DNA of 64,000 bases from an uncultured Bacilli bacterium (GTDB lineage: Bacteria > Bacillota_I > Bacilli_A > RF39 > UBA660): NCBI GenBank assembly GCA_934167885.1, contig CAKPMB010000008.1, positions 65-64,064 on the forward strand, read 5' to 3'. Position numbers and translations under genes: made by a program. The notes under the pieces were generated by a model, which had not been told where the DNA came from, did no database searches, and was given only the letters and a program-made list of their open reading frames with translations. Of this stretch, positions 12,662 through 19,480 are shown in pieces. The number at the start of each line of letters is the position of its first letter. Position 1 is the stretch's first letter.

Positions 12662-12958
12662 ATGAATAATGAATATCGTATTGTAGTTGATGCTGGGCAT
12701 GGTGGAAGTGATCCTGGAGCAGTATCTGGCAACTTAAAAGAAAAAGACTTTACACTAAAAGCTGCCAATTATATGTATAATAGATTTAAGGAGCTTGGAA
12801 TACCAGTAGCTATTACAAGAGATACTGATGAAACGTTAACACGAAAAGAGAGATTAAATACGATGACCAATACTTTTGGTAATGATGAAAAGGTGTTGGT
12901 ATTGTCTAATCACATAAATTCAGGAGGTGGCGATAATCATTGTGTAACGAATGTATAA
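12662..12958 (+). pseudogene. 5' segment (N-terminal ~90 aa) of an N-acetylmuramoyl-L-alanine amidase (Amidase_3) gene, interrupted by the intervening element
   Basis: 'IVVDAGHGGSDPGAV...EKDFTLK...LSNHINSGGG' matches the Amidase_3 N-half. The reading frame runs into the element's terminal inverted repeat and stops after 9 foreign codons. Strong RBS GAGGAGG. Confidence 0.8.
12932..12947. repeat. Left terminal inverted repeat of the intervening element
   Basis: GATAATCATTGTGTAA; its partner is at 19481-19496. Confidence 0.65.
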
Positions 12959-13092
12959 CAATTAAAGCCAAATAAATATATGAAGAAATGGAGAAATGTT
13001 ATGAATATTAGTTACACTAAAAAGGTGATTATTTATTACCAAATTTAAAAATAAGTGAAGAAAAATACAAAGAAAATTTAAACAAATATGAA

Positions 13093-13377
13093 TTGTTACG
13101 ATTAAATTTTATAAAAAAATATAGAAAAAGTTTTTATTTTCAGTTAATAATTGAGGGTAATTTATATCAATATCTTCTTTCAGTTTGTAAAAATTCTGAA
13201 GAAAAAGTTGACGACTTGATGCAAAAATTTATAAAAAATGATATCAGATTATCTGAAAACTTTAAAGAAAAAGATAATTTAGAGTGGACAAAATTAATGA
13301 ATAATTATAAAAATATTTCAGAAGAAATTGTATTAAATGAATATATTTTTGAATATAAATTGTTAAAAAATTTATAA
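13093..13377 (+). CDS. Hypothetical small protein (TTG start; weak call)
   Basis: ORF of 94 aa with no motifs; lies within the mobile element upstream of the HEPN gene. Confidence 0.3.
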   Translation: MLRLNFIKKYRKSFYFQLIIEGNLYQYLLSVCKNSEEKVDDLMQKFIKNDIRLSENFKEKDNLEWTKLMNNYKNISEEIVLNEYIFEYKLLKNL

Positions 13378-13497
13378 AAAAGGATAAATTTTTTCAAGAT
13401 AAAAAATGCTCTTTTTTTATTTTGTTAATTTTATGTCTTAGCCAGCACTGCAAATGTACTCCTCTCATTTGCAAAATTATGGGAAAAACCCAAACCC

Positions 13498-13528
13498 TTG
13501 AAAAATTTATCAAATTGTATGTTATAAT
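13498..13528 (+). promoter_or_regulatory. Sigma-A-type promoter (TTGAAA-19-TGtTATAAT, extended -10) upstream of the tandem-HEPN gene
   Basis: TTGAAA at 13498-13503, TG at 13520-21, TATAAT at 13523-13528. A perfect 8-bp inverted repeat TGCAAATG-N8-CATTTGCA at ~13450-13475 lies just upstream and could be an operator. Confidence 0.45.
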
Positions 13529-13555
13529 TATACATAGAATGGTTTAGGTGATATT

Positions 13556-14863
13556 ATGTTTGATACAAGTCAATGGTGGCAAAGTGATACGTTTAGAAAA
13601 ATGCTTAATTACGAACGAGAAAATAGTAGAGAAAAATTTATATATGACGTTAATCAAATGCTAAATGCTTATTATAATATTGACCAGAATTTTGATTTTT
13701 TGATTTATAATGATGATCCCCAATTAGTGGCTTTAGTTTTTTCGTTAATAAGTATTACACATAATAAGGATGATTTGTCTAATTATATAAAAAAAGAAGA
13801 TTTGTCTGATTATATGTATTTTATGATACAAACTAATGATGAATTTAATTCTAGTGTATATGCACATTCTTTTAGAAAAATGCCGGAAAAAAATTTAGAT
13901 ATAGGCGAGTTTTTTAGTATTCCACAATCTACACTTACAATAGTTGATATAGATGATAACGATAATTGTAAAGAAATTTACAATATAGATGATTGGGAGT
14001 TTAATTATAATCATGATGTAGTATCAATTAATAATGGCATTATCACATCTATAAAAAAGGGATGCATAATTGTTGAGTGTGTTAATAAAAAATACAACAT
14101 AACAAGACGAATTAAAATTAATAGTGGAAATGTTAAACAATCAAATATAACAGAATTTTTCTTTACACAGGTTAGAAATATTATAGCCCATGGTAGATTC
14201 TCTTTAGTTAATTCTGGTGCATATGACACAATTGATGAATATAATTCGTTTAATATGTTATCATCAGATAATAGATATAGTAGAGGTACGCAAAGAGAAA
14301 TGATAATTTGTGATAATAATCAATTGAATGTTGTGTATGGTGGAGAAAACTCTTTAAATCCCAAATATGTTATACATTTGGCAAAAACTTTATATAATAA
14401 AGATGGTAATTGTTTTTTTAAGTTTGTAGATATTTTTGATAAATATCATCCTATATTAATCGAAAGAGAATTAAAAAACTTATCTCCAATAGATAAAGTT
14501 GATTATGAAAATCTAATATTATTATCTAAATTTTATATTAATTTTATATATAATTATGATTTTAGTGAAAAAAATAATTATGATTACGATATAATTCCTA
14601 TAGATAATAGATTAAAAGGTACGCTTAGCAACAAGGAATTTATTTATGAAATTAGGACAGCTATAATGCATGGAAGATATACATATCAAAATGATATATT
14701 TAATTTTTGGAATTTTTCTAAAAATGATAACGAAACTAAAACTTTTGATTTGACTATATCATGTGATGAATTGGTAGATATTATTATTGCAAAAGAAAAT
14801 GATTTTTATGCTAATATGAAGTATTCTCCTAAAGAATTAATAAATAGTAGGAAAACTCTTTAG
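13556..14863 (+). CDS. Tandem-HEPN protein (two Rx4H motifs); putative RNase toxin or abortive-infection effector
   Basis: 'VRNIIAHGRF' (~aa 206-215) and 'IRTAIMHGRY' (~aa 362-371). Both fit the HEPN Rx4-6H signature and share the HGR(F/Y) context. 435 aa; encoded on the mobile element. Confidence 0.55.
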   Translation: MFDTSQWWQSDTFRKMLNYERENSREKFIYDVNQMLNAYYNIDQNFDFLIYNDDPQLVALVFSLISITHNKDDLSNYIKKEDLSDYMYFMIQTNDEFNSSVYAHSFRKMPEKNLDIGEFFSIPQSTLTIVDIDDNDNCKEIYNIDDWEFNYNHDVVSINNGIITSIKKGCIIVECVNKKYNITRRIKINSGNVKQSNITEFFFTQVRNIIAHGRFSLVNSGAYDTIDEYNSFNMLSSDNRYSRGTQREMIICDNNQLNVVYGGENSLNPKYVIHLAKTLYNKDGNCFFKFVDIFDKYHPILIERELKNLSPIDKVDYENLILLSKFYINFIYNYDFSEKNNYDYDIIPIDNRLKGTLSNKEFIYEIRTAIMHGRYTYQNDIFNFWNFSKNDNETKTFDLTISCDELVDIIIAKENDFYANMKYSPKELINSRKTL

Positions 14864-14937
14864 TCAAAGTTATTAAGGGTAAAAAATTTATTAACTGGGT
14901 AAAGTTTTGCATATGGATGGTGACATAGAATATTTAG

Positions 14938-14962
14938 AAACACTGTGAAAGGTGTTTTTTTC
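14938..14962 (+). terminator. Rho-independent terminator (AACAC-TGTGAAAG-GTGTT followed by T7)
   Basis: Hairpin plus T-run after the HEPN gene. Confidence 0.6.
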
Positions 14963-15011
14963 TTTTATTTAAATTTTTTCTTTTTTTGAAAAATTGTAAA
15001 GGAGGGGAAGT

Positions 15012-15275
15012 ATGGAAACATTATATATCAAATGTATCATTCCTTTTAGAGTTATAAAGGATAATAGACTAACTTCATTAGAAAAACTAATTTTGATACA
15101 TATGGTATCTTTTAGTAAAAATAATGATGTGTATTGTTGGGGTACAAATCAATACTTTTGTGACATTTATAAAGTTAGCAGACAAACAATATCAAAGAGC
15201 ATTAATAATTTGGTGAAATTAGGCTATTTAAGAAGTGAATATGATAAGTTCAATAAGAAGAATCAGAAAAGATAA
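15012..15275 (+). CDS. Small helix-turn-helix DNA-binding protein (phage/plasmid-type regulator)
   Basis: 87 aa; 'QTISKSINNLVKLGYLRSEY' resembles a winged-helix recognition segment; RBS AAAGGAGGGG. Confidence 0.4.
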   Translation: METLYIKCIIPFRVIKDNRLTSLEKLILIHMVSFSKNNDVYCWGTNQYFCDIYKVSRQTISKSINNLVKLGYLRSEYDKFNKKNQKR

Positions 15276-15619
15276 AAGATAAGTTTAATACTGGTATTAA
15301 AGAAAACTAGACACAATAAACAATAGTGTAGATAACTAAATATATATTACTTACTGAAAAAGAAAAGTATATATAACTATATAAGAAAGAAAGTGGTGAG
15401 GAAATAATAATGATTACAAGCATAAGTTTTAATGAGGTGTTGTTATGTTTAATATAACAGAGACATTTAAAGATAAATCCGCAAATTTAATCTTGTTGAT
15501 AACTGAATATATAAAAAGTGTGATAGATAATGAGTAGTATACTCCCGAAAAAATTATTTTTATGTTATGCTAGAAGTGGCTTTAAATTGTTATACAAAAA
15601 GAAAGGAGCGGAATAAAAA

Positions 15620-17203
15620 TTGTATAACACTTTAATTCAGCAAGATAAAGTATTTAAAGCGGGAATATACATAAGATTATCTGAAGCAGATGAAGGAAAA
15701 AATTACGAAACTGATAGTGAAAGTGTTCTTAATCAAAGAAATATATTAATGAAATTTATAAAGGAAAATGGTTTTATATTTGTAGATGAATATGTAGATG
15801 ATGGTTTTTCAGGAACTGATTTTGAAAGACCAGGATTTATGCGTATGATTGAAGATATAAAAAATAAATTAATAAACTTAGTTATAGTAAAAGATTTATC
15901 TAGATTAGGTAGAGATCATATTATGACAGGATATTATATTGAAACCTTTTTCCTTGAAAATGGAGTTAGATTTATTTCAATGCAAGAAGGATATGATAAT
16001 GCACTAAATCAGGCTAGTAATGATTCATCAACTTTTATAATTGCTTGTAATGATTATTATAGTAAACAAAATTCTATTAAGATTCGTAATGTCTTAAATG
16101 ATAAAAGAAGAAATGGTAAGTTTATTGGAAGTATGCCTAGTTTTGGATATATGAGAGATCCAGAGGATAAAGGTCATTTGATACCTGACCCAGAATATGC
16201 ACCCATTGTTAAGAAAATATTTGAAATGGCTTCAAAAGGAGTAGGTGTATCAGATATAACATCATATTTAAATGATAATAAAATAAAAACACCTAGTAGT
16301 CTTAAGAGAAAAAATCCTAATGCAAAATCTAAATATAATCCTATATGGACTATTTCATCAGTAAAGAAAATATTAAAAAATCAAATGTATACTGGAGATA
16401 TGGTACAAAGTGTTCAAACTAAAGTATCTTATAAATCTAAAAAGAAAAAAACTCTTCCTAGAAGTAATTGGGATATAGTAAAAAACACTCATGAAGCACT
16501 TGTTGATAGAATTACTTTTGAAAGAGTACAAAACAATGTTAAAAGAATAAATAAAACAGTTAATACTAATCGCGAAAAAAGATTATTTGAAAATTTAATT
16601 TATTGTAGAGAATGTGGAAATACATTAACAGTTTCATATAGAAAGAATCATAACTATTGGACAGTTAATTGTAATAGGTATTCAAGAGATCCTAGAAGAA
16701 GAATGTGTGAACCACATTTTATGCCATATGATAAATTGGAAGAAGCTTTATTGCAAAATATAAAGAAGACTTGTAAAAAATATATAGAACAAATAAACAT
16801 ATCTGAACTATCAAAAGAAATAGCAAATAAAAAGAAAAAGACTAATGAAAACAAAGAAAGAATAACAGAACTTCAAAAGAAAGAAAAAGAGTATTTAAAT
16901 AAGTTAGATGTTTTATATGAAGATAAATTTAGGGGTGTGGTATCAGAAGAAACTTACAAAAGAATTGCATCTGAAACAGAAAAATTGTTGACTAAAATAA
17001 GGAATCAAATTGATAAACAAAAAGATGAAGATAAGGTAATAAAAAATAAGACTAGTGATTTAAAAGAATATGAAGAAAAAATTAAAAAATTAATTGATAT
17101 AGAAAATCCTACACGAGAATTTTTACAAACAATTGTGGATAAAATAATTATTGATAAAGATAAGAATGTGGAAATCATTTATAAATTCAGTATAATAGAT
17201 TAA
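15620..17203 (+). CDS. Large serine recombinase (resolvase N-domain + recombinase domain + zinc ribbon + coiled coil), TTG start
   Basis: 'AGIYIRLSEADEG' with the nucleophile Ser context, 'LSRLGRD', zinc ribbon 'CRECGNTL...CNRYSRD...C', K/E-rich coiled-coil tail. 527 aa; RBS AAAGGAGCGG. Confidence 0.85.
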   Translation: MYNTLIQQDKVFKAGIYIRLSEADEGKNYETDSESVLNQRNILMKFIKENGFIFVDEYVDDGFSGTDFERPGFMRMIEDIKNKLINLVIVKDLSRLGRDHIMTGYYIETFFLENGVRFISMQEGYDNALNQASNDSSTFIIACNDYYSKQNSIKIRNVLNDKRRNGKFIGSMPSFGYMRDPEDKGHLIPDPEYAPIVKKIFEMASKGVGVSDITSYLNDNKIKTPSSLKRKNPNAKSKYNPIWTISSVKKILKNQMYTGDMVQSVQTKVSYKSKKKKTLPRSNWDIVKNTHEALVDRITFERVQNNVKRINKTVNTNREKRLFENLIYCRECGNTLTVSYRKNHNYWTVNCNRYSRDPRRRMCEPHFMPYDKLEEALLQNIKKTCKKYIEQINISELSKEIANKKKKTNENKERITELQKKEKEYLNKLDVLYEDKFRGVVSEETYKRIASETEKLLTKIRNQIDKQKDEDKVIKNKTSDLKEYEEKIKKLIDIENPTREFLQTIVDKIIIDKDKNVEIIYKFSIID

Positions 17204-17235
17204 AATAATAATATACCGATAACGGAATAAAAATA

Positions 17236-17264
17236 TTGACAAATACTACCGATTACGGTATAAT
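17236..17264 (+). promoter_or_regulatory. Consensus sigma-A promoter TTGACA-17-TATAAT driving the Fic gene
   Basis: TTGACA at 17236-17241 and TATAAT at 17259-17264. The ORF-track start at 17236 is actually the -35 box. Confidence 0.6.
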
Positions 17265-17283
17265 TGCAATAGAGGTGAAAAGT

Positions 17284-18210
17284 ATGGAATTTATGACTAC
17301 AAAGAAAGCTGTTGAAAAATGGAACATTAGTGAAAGAAGAATCAGACAATTATTACAAGATGGTAGAATTGGAGGTGCAGTTAAAGTAGGAAATAGTTGG
17401 AATATTCCTATTGATGCCGAGAAACCAGTTGATAAAAGAATAATTAAACCAGATGATAATAAATTTATTATTGATTTAGATGATGATTATTTTGATGAAG
17501 TAGATAGTTTAAAAAAAGAATTAGATAGTAAAAGACCAATACCTAAAGAAACTTTAAAATCATTAAGAGAATCTATTAACTTAGAATGGACTTATAATAG
17601 TAATGGAATTGAAGGTAATACTTTAACATTAAGAGAAACACAAGTTGTTTTAGAAGGAATAACTGTTGGTGGAAAATCTATTAAAGAGCATTTAGAAGCA
17701 ATTAACCATGAAAAAGCAATTTTATTTTTAGATGATTTAGTTAAAGATAATGAACCAATTAGTGAGTGGAATATTAAAAATATCCATCAGTTAATTTTAA
17801 AGGATATAGATAATGAAAATGCTGGAAGGTATAGAAAAGAAAATGTAACTATTAAAGGTGCAACACATATTCCTCCAGACCATTTAAAAGTTCCTGAATT
17901 GATGGAAAAATTAATATTAACTTATAATACTTGGAGTGAATATCATCCAATAATTCAAGCAGCATTATTACATGGTGAGTTAGTTAAAATACACCCATTT
18001 GTAGATGGTAATGGAAGAACATCCAGATTACTTATGAATTTAGTTTTAATGAACAATGGATATAATCCCGTAATTATTAAAAAGGAATCAAGATTAAAAT
18101 ATTATGAAGCATTAGATAAAGCACATACAACTGGTAATTATACAGATTTTGTTAAGCTAGTTACTGAGTTGGAAGTGGAAATGTTGAAAAAATATTTAGA
18201 ATTATTGTAG
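17284..18210 (+). CDS. Fic-family protein (class II, with N-terminal inhibitory motif) carrying an N-terminal HTH
   Basis: Fic motif 'HPFVDGNGRTSRLL'; inhibitory 'SNGIEGN' ((S/T)xxxE(G/N)); N-terminal 'TKKAVEKWNISERRIRQLLQDGRI' is HTH-like. RBS GAGGTG before ATG 17284. Confidence 0.8.
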   Translation: MEFMTTKKAVEKWNISERRIRQLLQDGRIGGAVKVGNSWNIPIDAEKPVDKRIIKPDDNKFIIDLDDDYFDEVDSLKKELDSKRPIPKETLKSLRESINLEWTYNSNGIEGNTLTLRETQVVLEGITVGGKSIKEHLEAINHEKAILFLDDLVKDNEPISEWNIKNIHQLILKDIDNENAGRYRKENVTIKGATHIPPDHLKVPELMEKLILTYNTWSEYHPIIQAALLHGELVKIHPFVDGNGRTSRLLMNLVLMNNGYNPVIIKKESRLKYYEALDKAHTTGNYTDFVKLVTELEVEMLKKYLELL

Positions 18211-18222
18211 TAGGAGGAAGTT

Positions 18223-18390
18223 ATGGAAATAGAAGTAATTATTGCAGCTATAATAGAAGGAATTGTAGCATTAATTGTAGGTTTTTGCAGTGGATATTCA
18301 GTAGGAATTAATAAAAAAAATAAATTTAAACAGAAAGCTAAAGATAATGCTAATCAAATTCAAATTGGTGTAATAAATAATGGAAAATAA
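18223..18390 (+). CDS. Small single-TM protein (55 aa), translationally coupled to the next ORF
   Basis: RBS TAGGAGGAAG; hydrophobic 'VIIAAIIEGIVALIVGFCSGY'. Its 3' 48 bp are duplicated imperfectly at the start of the next ORF (18331-18378 versus 18395-18442). Confidence 0.45.
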   Translation: MEIEVIIAAIIEGIVALIVGFCSGYSVGINKKNKFKQKAKDNANQIQIGVINNGK

Positions 18391-19480
18391 AAATCAGAAG
18401 GCTAGAGATAATGCAATTCAAGTTCATGCGGATACAATAAATCTCGGATTAAATGAAGAAACTGTGAGAAATATAATTTCTATTGAAACACAAAAAGCTT
18501 TAAAAGAAGCAGAATTAGTAGCAACAGAAGTTGCACTAAAAAGGTTAAATGAATATAATGAAACATTGATAAATAAATTAGTAAAATATGAAATGCTACA
18601 AGCCTTTTCAGATCCAGCTATTCAAATGCTATTTAGAAAAACAGAAAGAACTGCTATTTGTACAGATAGAGAATTTGATTATGAAATGTTAAGTGAATTA
18701 TTAGCGCATAGGGTTAAGAAGGATAAAGATTATGTAGTAAAAGCTGCAATTAATAAATCAGTTGAAATAATTGAAGATATTTCTGAGGAAGCTTTGCTAG
18801 GGTTAACTTTATTATTTGCGATAATAAGCATACAACCAGAAAGTGGAATTATGTCTGATGGATTAGCTGTATTGGATAGTTTATTTGGAAGACTAATTGC
18901 TGGAAATAAACTACCATACGGAAGAACTTGGATAGATAATTTAGAAATAGTTCAAGTTGTAAAAATTATACCATATTCAAGTATCTCAAAATTTAATGAC
19001 CACTTTAATAAAAAATTAGATGGTTACTTTAAGGATGGGATAGAAGTAAATTCAGAAAAATATAACAAAATAATAAATGATTTGAAAAATGTTGGATTGT
19101 CAGGAAATATACTAATAAAAAATGAATACATAAATAATTATTATAAAATTCCTGTAGTAAAAAAAGAACAAATAAAAGATTTAAGAATTAACATAGTTAC
19201 AGCAACTGGACAAATTACAGTTATTAAATTAACAGAAGAACAAATAAAAGTATTAGAAGATATATATGAAAATTATGATAATAAACCACAAAATATAGAT
19301 GAGATTCAGAAAAAATATCAAGAAAATTTAGATAAATATGTTAATTTGGAAAAAATTTCTACTTGGTGGGATGACGCAATGTTTAATATGCCAAGTATAG
19401 AAATAACCCCTATTGGGAGAATTTTAGCACAAGTGAATGCTAAAAGATTGGATGATAGGGTGCCTAGTTTAGAAAATTAA
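18380..19480 (+). CDS. Hypothetical protein (366 aa), last gene of the mobile element
   Basis: Long ORF with no recognisable motif. Confidence 0.5.
   Translation: MENKNQKARDNAIQVHADTINLGLNEETVRNIISIETQKALKEAELVATEVALKRLNEYNETLINKLVKYEMLQAFSDPAIQMLFRKTERTAICTDREFDYEMLSELLAHRVKKDKDYVVKAAINKSVEIIEDISEEALLGLTLLFAIISIQPESGIMSDGLAVLDSLFGRLIAGNKLPYGRTWIDNLEIVQVVKIIPYSSISKFNDHFNKKLDGYFKDGIEVNSEKYNKIINDLKNVGLSGNILIKNEYINNYYKIPVVKKEQIKDLRINIVTATGQITVIKLTEEQIKVLEDIYENYDNKPQNIDEIQKKYQENLDKYVNLEKISTWWDDAMFNMPSIEITPIGRILAQVNAKRLDDRVPSLEN

Follow-up and report, generated by a model that had tools for sequence, protein, structure and literature searches.

Genes and features at the locus

We analysed a 64-kb stretch of contig CAKPMB010000008.1 from an uncultured Bacilli bacterium, hereafter the window. 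It contains a gene for a 435-amino-acid protein that is carried as cargo on a ~6.6-kb mobile element. The protein bears one R-x4-H motif in each of two homologous halves and an immunoglobulin-like (Ig-like) domain inserted in the first of them. Our analyses suggest that it is a divergent relative of the HEPN domains and a candidate stand-alone ribonuclease (RNase) effector. The gene and the parts of its product lie at the following window positions:

13556..14863, + strand: open reading frame (ORF) of 435 amino acids (ATG start, from the ORF list), predicted tandem HEPN-like protein with an Ig-like insert
13586..13819, + strand: N-terminal helices of domain 1 (residues 11-88), ending in the invariant pair K71-D72; model helices at residues 11-22, 24-40, 42-52, 55-69 and 71-80
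13820..14125, + strand: divergent Big_2/Ig-like beta-sandwich (residues 89-190) within domain 1, between the equivalents of helices 2 and 3; all-beta in the model
14174..14191, + strand: motif 1, R207-N-I-I-A-H212, followed by G213-R214, at the end of helix 198-211 of the AlphaFold2 model; R207, N208, H212 and G213 invariant
14342..14830, + strand: domain 2 (residues 263-425), with helices, motif helix, three-stranded beta meander and last helix; a separate AlphaFold2 model of residues 263-435 has a predicted local distance difference test (pLDDT) score of 85 and a predicted template modelling (pTM) score of 0.79
14654..14671, + strand: motif 2, R367-T-A-I-M-H372, followed by G373-R374, at the end of helix 359-371 of the AlphaFold2 model; R367, H372 and G373 invariant

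Two conserved motifs in a duplicated protein

The first-pass annotation of this DNA had pointed to two copies of R-x4-H-G-R-(F/Y) in helical surroundings. Both copies are real. QVRNIIAHGRF and EIRTAIMHGRY are the only two matches to R-x4-6-H in the protein, and the helical context is borne out by the model, in which each motif ends a helix. Among 20,000 shuffled versions of the protein, at least two Rx4H motifs occurred in 2.4%; two Rx4HG motifs, or a single Rx4HGR[FY], never occurred. An alignment of 25 homologues, with identity down to ~30%, contains just 36 invariant columns, and R207, N208, H212, G213, R367, H372 and G373 are among them. The other invariant residues include Y19, R25, K27, L57, I65, K71 and D72 in domain 1, and K325, F326, Y327, I331, Y332 and D335 in domain 2. 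Both motifs are retained in the remote family members P0076 and P0086. The residue following each arginine is polar (N208, T368). An invariant acidic residue (D72, D335) precedes each motif, closes the preceding long helix and aligns with E55 of the HEPN protein pEK499_p136, described below.

The AlphaFold2 model built from the family alignment (pLDDT 85, pTM 0.84) shows, in order, helices at residues 11-87, an all-beta region at 90-190, a helix at 198-211, a mixed region, helices at 269-332, a helix at 359-371, three strands at 375-402 and a helix at 403-420. When the N-terminal half without its Ig-like domain was compared with the C-terminal half using hhalign, the two were found to be homologous (P 6e-6, probability 85%). 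The score was 40.7 against 13.5 +/- 2.3 for column shuffles, none of 80 shuffles reached it, and z was ~12. The 435-amino-acid protein is therefore a tandem duplication of a ~150-residue unit. In each unit, a long hydrophobic helix that closes with an invariant acidic residue is followed by an insert, a motif helix with R-x4-H-G at its end, a beta element and a final helix. The insert at residues 90-190 precedes the first motif helix, and a shorter one at 333-358 likewise precedes the second.

The larger insert is related to Big_2 domains. A Foldseek search of the full model against the PDB returned only Big_2/Ig domains, all at residues 90-190, from EA1, Sap, LigA/B and the C-terminal domain of lambda gpV (probability ~1, E ~0.01). 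Positions 137-199 of the family profile also match true Big_2 repeat proteins (P0091, P0093).

The family is very rare. Among 5.8 billion proteins searched, we found 74 homologues, none of them named. Searching 1.84 billion cluster representatives exhaustively with HMMER identified 24 at E<=1e-3, several of which are fragments or Big_2 repeat proteins. Only one locus was present in 185,579 species genomes, in a metagenome-assembled genome (MAG) of an uncultured Eubacteriales. The sources of the homologues are gut metagenomes and MAGs of Firmicutes.

Relationship to HEPN domains

HEPN domains are defined by a four-helix up-down bundle, with a polar residue after the arginine of the motif and often an acidic residue in helix 2 (PMC3710099). 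The motif lies at the end of helix 3, inserts are frequent between helices 2 and 3, and Csx1 has a beta hairpin directly after the motif (PMC3710099). At the level of sequence and secondary structure, both units show the features described there, and the invariant D72 and D335 are candidates for the acidic residue of helix 2. Each unit has a conserved Rx4-6H motif whose arginine is followed by a polar residue, a motif at a helix end, an insert before the motif helix and a last helix after the beta element.

The only named HEPN family to which a tie was found, a weak one centred on the motif, is the pEK499_p136 family (PF18736; Anantharaman et al. 2013, PMC3710099), represented by the type protein pEK499_p136 of plasmid pEK499 (e.g. 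WP_000528932.1), which is annotated as 'HEPN family nuclease' and matches PF18736 with E 1e-49. We built alignments of 24 and of 162 members of this family. By hhalign, the N-terminal unit is collinear with pEK499_p136 over 86 columns (P 0.004-0.006; 0 of 80 shuffles reach the score), and the collinear part includes the N-terminal portion of domain 1 (LLGLIVLPKE against LVFSLISITHNKDD). The C-terminal unit gave P 0.003-0.03. A profile merging both units gave P 0.0011, with z ~10 against shuffles, and P 2.9e-4 when the 162-sequence profile was used. The hhalign probabilities do not exceed 40%, and the alignments are confident over the 20-30 columns that surround the motif. The protein database also lists precomputed PF18736 matches of family members, graded 'faint' or 'weak'. 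A second protein search, seeded with the pEK499_p136 alignment, recovered close pEK499_p136 members and no distant ones. The remote member P0076 matches DUF4209 marginally (E 0.09).

We conclude that the family is HEPN-like, with a putative HEPN fold. It is probably a divergent member of the HEPN superfamily, and it falls outside PF18736.

Promoter and local signals

The following signals flank the gene:

13449-13456 and 13466-13473, no strand assigned: inverted repeat TGCAAATG-N9-CATTTGCA, from the repeat search
13498..13528, + strand: promoter-like site, TTGAAA, a 19-nucleotide (nt) spacer and the extended -10 box TGTTATAAT, read from the letters
13546..13551, + strand: Shine-Dalgarno sequence AGGTGA, 4 nt 5' of the ATG, read from the letters
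14936..14970, + strand: weak hairpin resembling a terminator, with a 9-bp stem and a U run after it, in the element backbone (RNA fold -7.8 kcal/mol, z -2.2)

The extended -10 promoter noted in the first-pass annotation is present: TGTTATAAT at 13520-13528 is a perfect TGnTATAAT, with TTGAAA at 13498-13503. A consensus promoter scan did not list this pair because its spacer is 19 nt. Only ~20 nt separate the -10 box from the ATG. A TATAAT box is found at the equivalent position 5' of the homologues in four other loci (L019, L020, L003 and L004), and DNA similarity to the solo homologue in L020 begins at 13502. The hairpin at 14936-14970 was not picked up by a stricter consensus terminator scan.

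An 8-bp inverted repeat upstream had also been described earlier and proposed as a possible operator. The repeat itself is genuine, with a spacer of 9 nt rather than 8. It lies in backbone shared with locus L011, where it stands 5' of a different cargo gene, and it is absent 5' of the solo homologues; we therefore rejected a role as an operator specific to the 435-amino-acid gene. The form (T/C)GCAAATG-N9-CATTTGCA is kept just 5' of the cargo slot in element copies with differing cargo (window 13449-13473; L011 about 5400-5430). The element's own helix-turn-helix (HTH) protein or recombinase might act at it, or it could be a remnant of the tnpV terminator.

A mobile element with exchangeable cargo

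The gene lies within an element whose main parts are as follows:

12931..19500, no strand assigned: ~6.6-kb mobile element within an Amidase_3-LysM gene; these borders delimit its near-identity with L011 and L019
13002..13377, + strand: tnpV-like gene that has lost 1 nt from an A run (Pfam TnpV E 2.5e-16 over profile positions 29-111 of 111)
15012..15275, + strand: HTH_36 protein of 87 amino acids (Pfam HTH_36 E 1.8e-13)
15620..17203, + strand: large serine recombinase (Resolvase, Recombinase and Zn_ribbon_recom domains), 94% identical to L011 at the DNA level
17236..18210, + strand: SoFic-like Fic-domain protein, in the second cargo slot (Pfam Fic E 1.8e-25; PADLOC SoFic E 4e-36, PDC-S04 E 2.5e-37)

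The element ends in the inverted repeats TCATTGTGTAA (12937-12947) and TTACACAATGA (19481-19491), and GGTGG is present at both junctions (12926-12930 and 19501-19505). The N-terminal part of Amidase_3 is encoded in 12662..12958, and its C-terminal part, with LysM, in 19549..20604. Joining the flanks at GGTGG brings back the reading frame (…NSGGG|EGAEVVY). Uninterrupted homologues in other species from gut metagenomes (L052, L031 and L064), found with a degenerate pattern, align with the joined gene across the junction; an exact search for an empty site with the window's own joined sequence gave no match.

The split gene (window 12662-12930 plus 19501-20604) encodes Amidase_3 with five LysM domains and is located just 5' of spoIIGA-sigE. 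The GGTGG is conserved, and excision would restore the frame. In many gut-metagenome contigs of different species, this site holds elements whose recombinase is at least 90% identical to the one in the window. The element resembles skin-type intervening elements, and the gene that it interrupts may be a sporulation gene. Close kinship with plasmid-borne Tn4451-type transposons was rejected, as no plasmid copy exceeds 36% identity to the recombinase. At 90% identity, the recombinase falls in a cluster of 196 members.

Within the element, the genes are ordered as frameshifted tnpV, the 435-amino-acid gene, the HTH_36 gene, the recombinase, the Fic gene, a 55-amino-acid ORF and a gene for an LPO_1073/Vpar_1526 protein. 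The 94-amino-acid ORF (13093..13377) that had been suggested as an antitoxin or regulator is the 3' part of the broken tnpV, of which L019 has an intact 105-amino-acid version by DNA alignment. The A run is A5 in the window and A6 in L019. An independent metagenome assembly (L001) calls the same 94-amino-acid ORF, so the frameshift probably does not stem from a sequencing error. Downstream of the 435-amino-acid gene, the region 14879-15064 is conserved with L011 despite different cargo. The HTH_36 gene is probably part of the backbone, because its start falls in this shared sequence.

Comparison of element copies reveals two cargo slots. L011-L018 occupy the same site with a 94%-identical recombinase, but there an unrelated 591-amino-acid protein replaces the 435-amino-acid gene and two other proteins replace the Fic block; L019 carries the 435-amino-acid gene and has an empty second slot. 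Slot 1 (window 13500-14879; L011 5459-7426) is filled by either the 435-amino-acid gene or the 591-amino-acid protein. Slot 2 (window 17200-19474; L011 9581-11056; L019 4317-4622) contains Fic, the 55-amino-acid ORF and LPO_1073, or proteins of 201 and 247 amino acids, or nothing. For the alternative cargo proteins, Pfam gave no match and PADLOC only marginal ones (E ~5e-4). Homology with L011 ends at 13499 and resumes at 14879; therefore, the exchanged cassette (13500..14879) consists of the promoter and the ORF only. In the window's second slot (17236-19480), the Fic gene is followed by the 55-amino-acid ORF (18223..18390) and then by the gene for the 366-amino-acid LPO_1073/Vpar_1526 protein (NCBIfam E 1.4e-20), whose start overlaps the 55-amino-acid ORF. 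The three genes may form an operon.

The window, L001, L002 and L019 share the gene order tnpV, X, HTH_36, recombinase, as would be expected if the 435-amino-acid protein were an accessory of the element, acting in transposition, excision control or DNA binding. We consider such a role highly improbable. The L011-L018 elements have an unrelated protein in the slot at the same site, the homologues at 55-64% identity are solo genes without a recombinase, and tnpV in the window is frameshifted.

Two observations concern other parts of the window. Two adjacent tRNA genes (22805-22950) lie directly 3' of the ORF that follows sigE, and a 15-nt tandem repeat (AATAATGATACAAAA, 7.1 copies, 94% matches) is found at 61119-61225 within the ORF 60321..61307.

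Genomic contexts of the homologues

Homologues at 55-64% identity lie in a variable region 3' of secA. Solo homologues in three lineages (L003, L010, L020 and the P0015 locus, GCA_016648615.1) are located a few genes 3' of secA, among acetyltransferases and small ORFs. The variable stretch downstream of secA may be a recurrent integration hotspot. One group of homologues, 31% identical, is found on a small Mob/integrase element adjoining a restriction-modification system and GmrSD.

An all-against-all comparison of neighbours over six independent contexts revealed no conserved partner. The gene is a stand-alone one riding a mobile element, as the first-pass annotation had suggested. Its further suggestion that the small HTH ORF might serve as antitoxin or regulator is not upheld; neither tnpV nor HTH_36 is present beside homologues outside the element, and with no neighbour conserved and tnpV frameshifted, both were rejected in this role. 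A HEPN-MNT (HepT/MntA) toxin-antitoxin system of type II or VII was also rejected, given that the neighbours are tnpV and HTH_36, with no adjacent nucleotidyltransferase and no conserved neighbour.

AbiF and AbiV were once taken for single proteins and have RNA antitoxins (PMC13064643), so we searched the flanks for RNA. There is no Rfam match (published RNA families included) and no tandem repeat in 12900-15700, and an RNA antitoxin of a known kind was rejected on these grounds. The AbiF and AbiV precedent, together with carriage on a mobile element, would fit an addiction-module toxin that stabilises the element instead of defending against phages, held in check by an unrecognised RNA as in type III systems or by autoinhibition through the Ig-like insert. 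This seems unlikely to us. Besides the lack of RNA signals in the flanks, both sides of the cassette are backbone common to an element with different cargo, and the -10 box is very close to the ATG. Sister elements that lack the 435-amino-acid gene persist at the same site, and homologues are found outside mobile elements too.

Proposed function

We give roughly even odds to the reading in which the protein is a single-chain HEPN-like pair with one composite, metal-independent RNase site, a Big_2 domain that gates the site or senses a trigger, and a role as a stand-alone abortive-infection or defence effector. The protein would be a cytoplasmic single chain whose two HEPN-like domains arose by tandem duplication. 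The two halves may pack as HEPN subunits do in a dimer, or as the HEPN pair of Cas13 does, so that R207, N208 and H212 together with R367, T368 and H372 would form one composite endoribonuclease site. The Big_2 insert occupies the place where HEPN domains usually bear inserts; as a candidate sensor or regulator, it would keep the site closed until a trigger, such as a phage protein, is encountered. Big_2 Ig-like domains are common on the surface proteins of bacteria and on the capsid and tail proteins of phages. Once activated, the protein would cleave RNA, stop translation and cause abortive infection or growth arrest. With its own promoter, the gene forms a one-gene cassette, exchangeable cargo on a serine-recombinase element alongside the SoFic-like gene. 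Both this Fic gene and the homologue beside the restriction-modification system and GmrSD count in favour of a defence role.

A more specific version is speculative, and we hold it to be distinctly less probable. The intracellular Big_2 domain in the first of the two fused HEPN-like domains would be the trigger sensor that opens the composite RNase site, and the family would be a new one-gene anti-phage system of gut Clostridia, its promoter and ORF spread as a cassette on a skin-like element that interrupts an amidase gene beside spoIIGA-sigE.

Several results weigh against the proposal of a HEPN-like RNase effector. Searches of the protein and 30 relatives with hmmscan against Pfam, NCBIfam, PADLOC and PHROGs detected no HEPN or other family at E<=10. 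Against PDB sequences, phmmer and hmmsearch gave nothing but a chance fibrillin match (E 0.45). The first-pass annotation had named a Foldseek comparison as a check, and this yielded no HEPN structure for the full model (PDB) or for the model of residues 263-435 (PDB, BFVD), with best E values of 0.26 in the PDB and 0.18 in BFVD. Each predicted domain is alpha+beta and not the canonical all-alpha, four-helix up-down bundle. The full-length hhalign comparison with pEK499_p136 gave E 0.03 over 16 columns. A hidden Markov model from 24 pEK499_p136 sequences scores family members at 4-6 bits, always at the motif, against a PF18736 gathering threshold of 26.6 and 168 bits for pEK499_p136 itself as positive control. 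No homologues were found in IMG/VR or in phage and plasmid collections. The homologues at 55-64% identity are solo chromosomal genes, several homologues lie among housekeeping genes 3' of secA, and the defence context is circumstantial. The intramolecular HEPN pair put forward in the first-pass annotation is sustained as far as two motifs in two homologous halves of one chain are concerned; its HEPN identity found no significant model and no matching fold.

The lack of a significant match to any HEPN model or structure, and a similarity to pEK499_p136 that is mostly limited to the motif, would also be compatible with a helical repeat protein without nuclease function or with an inactive HEPN relative. 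The conserved R...HG helix ends might then contribute to dimer-like packing or bind a ligand, nucleotide or nucleic acid. Inactive HEPN domains are known in AbiA, Swt1 and MtlR (PMC3710099; for AbiA, PMC13064643). However, inactive HEPN domains usually lose the arginine or the histidine (PMC3710099), and in this family neither residue varies in either half, nor do the polar and acidic residues that flank them. We regard a protein without nuclease function as a minority possibility, roughly one chance in four.

Significance

The HEPN RNase superfamily and the logic of defence genes as cargo are already known. This family appears to be undescribed, as do its pairing of fused units with an Ig-like insert and the fact that no current model detects it. 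If active, the protein would be a compact (435 amino acids), guide-free, single-chain double-HEPN RNase unseen by current annotation or defence-finder models, and defence-finding tools would be missing effectors in gut Firmicutes. The Ig-like insert would offer a tractable case of gating of a HEPN site within one chain. Differing cargo on one recombinase element at one chromosomal site shows how strains exchange such genes. The general impact is limited by the rarity of the family, and HEPN-type defence RNases are already a well-populated class.

Comparison with known systems

Cas13 has two R-x4-H HEPN motifs in one polypeptide, which form a composite intramolecular site. The 435-amino-acid protein also has two such motifs per chain, and a composite intramolecular site is presumed for it. 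Unlike Cas13, it is less than half the size, has no guide RNA candidate and shows no sequence or Foldseek similarity. Identity as Cas13 or another type VI effector was rejected, in agreement with the first-pass annotation, given the wrong size, the absence of a CRISPR array or CRISPR-like array anywhere in the 64 kb, and the absence of an Rfam match.

The Abi_2 group of HEPN proteins also has a motif of the R-N-x-x-A-H type. Abi_2/AbiD/AbiF proteins are single-protein HEPN effectors of Firmicutes on mobile DNA, as the 435-amino-acid protein may be. AbiF, of the AbiD-AbiD1-AbiF (Abi_2) group, is a type III toxin-antitoxin system and is related to Cas13d (PMC13064643). In contrast, the 435-amino-acid protein has no Abi_2 Pfam match and no structured or repeated RNA upstream, and it has tandem units and an Ig-like insert. 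An Abi_2 type III toxin-antitoxin system was rejected, as there is no Abi_2 match, the flanks contain no Rfam family or repeats, and both flanks are element backbone.

Other stand-alone proteins with HEPN motifs have been shown to have anti-phage activity, including AbiV, AbiF and AbiB (PMC13064643) and Butters gp57r (10.1101/2023.01.03.522681), and AbiB is triggered by a phage capsid protein (PMC13064643). AbiV, AbiB, AbiJ and mycobacteriophage Butters gp57r resemble the 435-amino-acid protein in being one-gene systems assigned largely by Rx4-6H and weak profile matches, and experiments have demonstrated anti-phage activity for them. They differ in having one motif per chain and no detectable sequence relation to it. 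The HEPN domain of Csx1 shares the beta element after the motif, whereas the 435-amino-acid protein has no CARF domain, CRISPR context or detectable similarity to Csx1.

Members of the pEK499_p136 family have a single domain of ~160 amino acids (136-200), whereas the 435-amino-acid protein has two units and a Big_2 insert and scores well below the PF18736 threshold. The pEK499_p136 family is proteobacterial and rich in Bacteroidota, and the 435-amino-acid family comes from low-GC gut Firmicutes. In both, the hydrophobic helix ends in an invariant basic-acidic pair (PKE in pEK499_p136, NKDD/NYD here), and x-R-N-x-x-A-H at a helix end is followed by a beta element and a final helix, in collinear order by hhalign. 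Both families are found in defence and mobile contexts.

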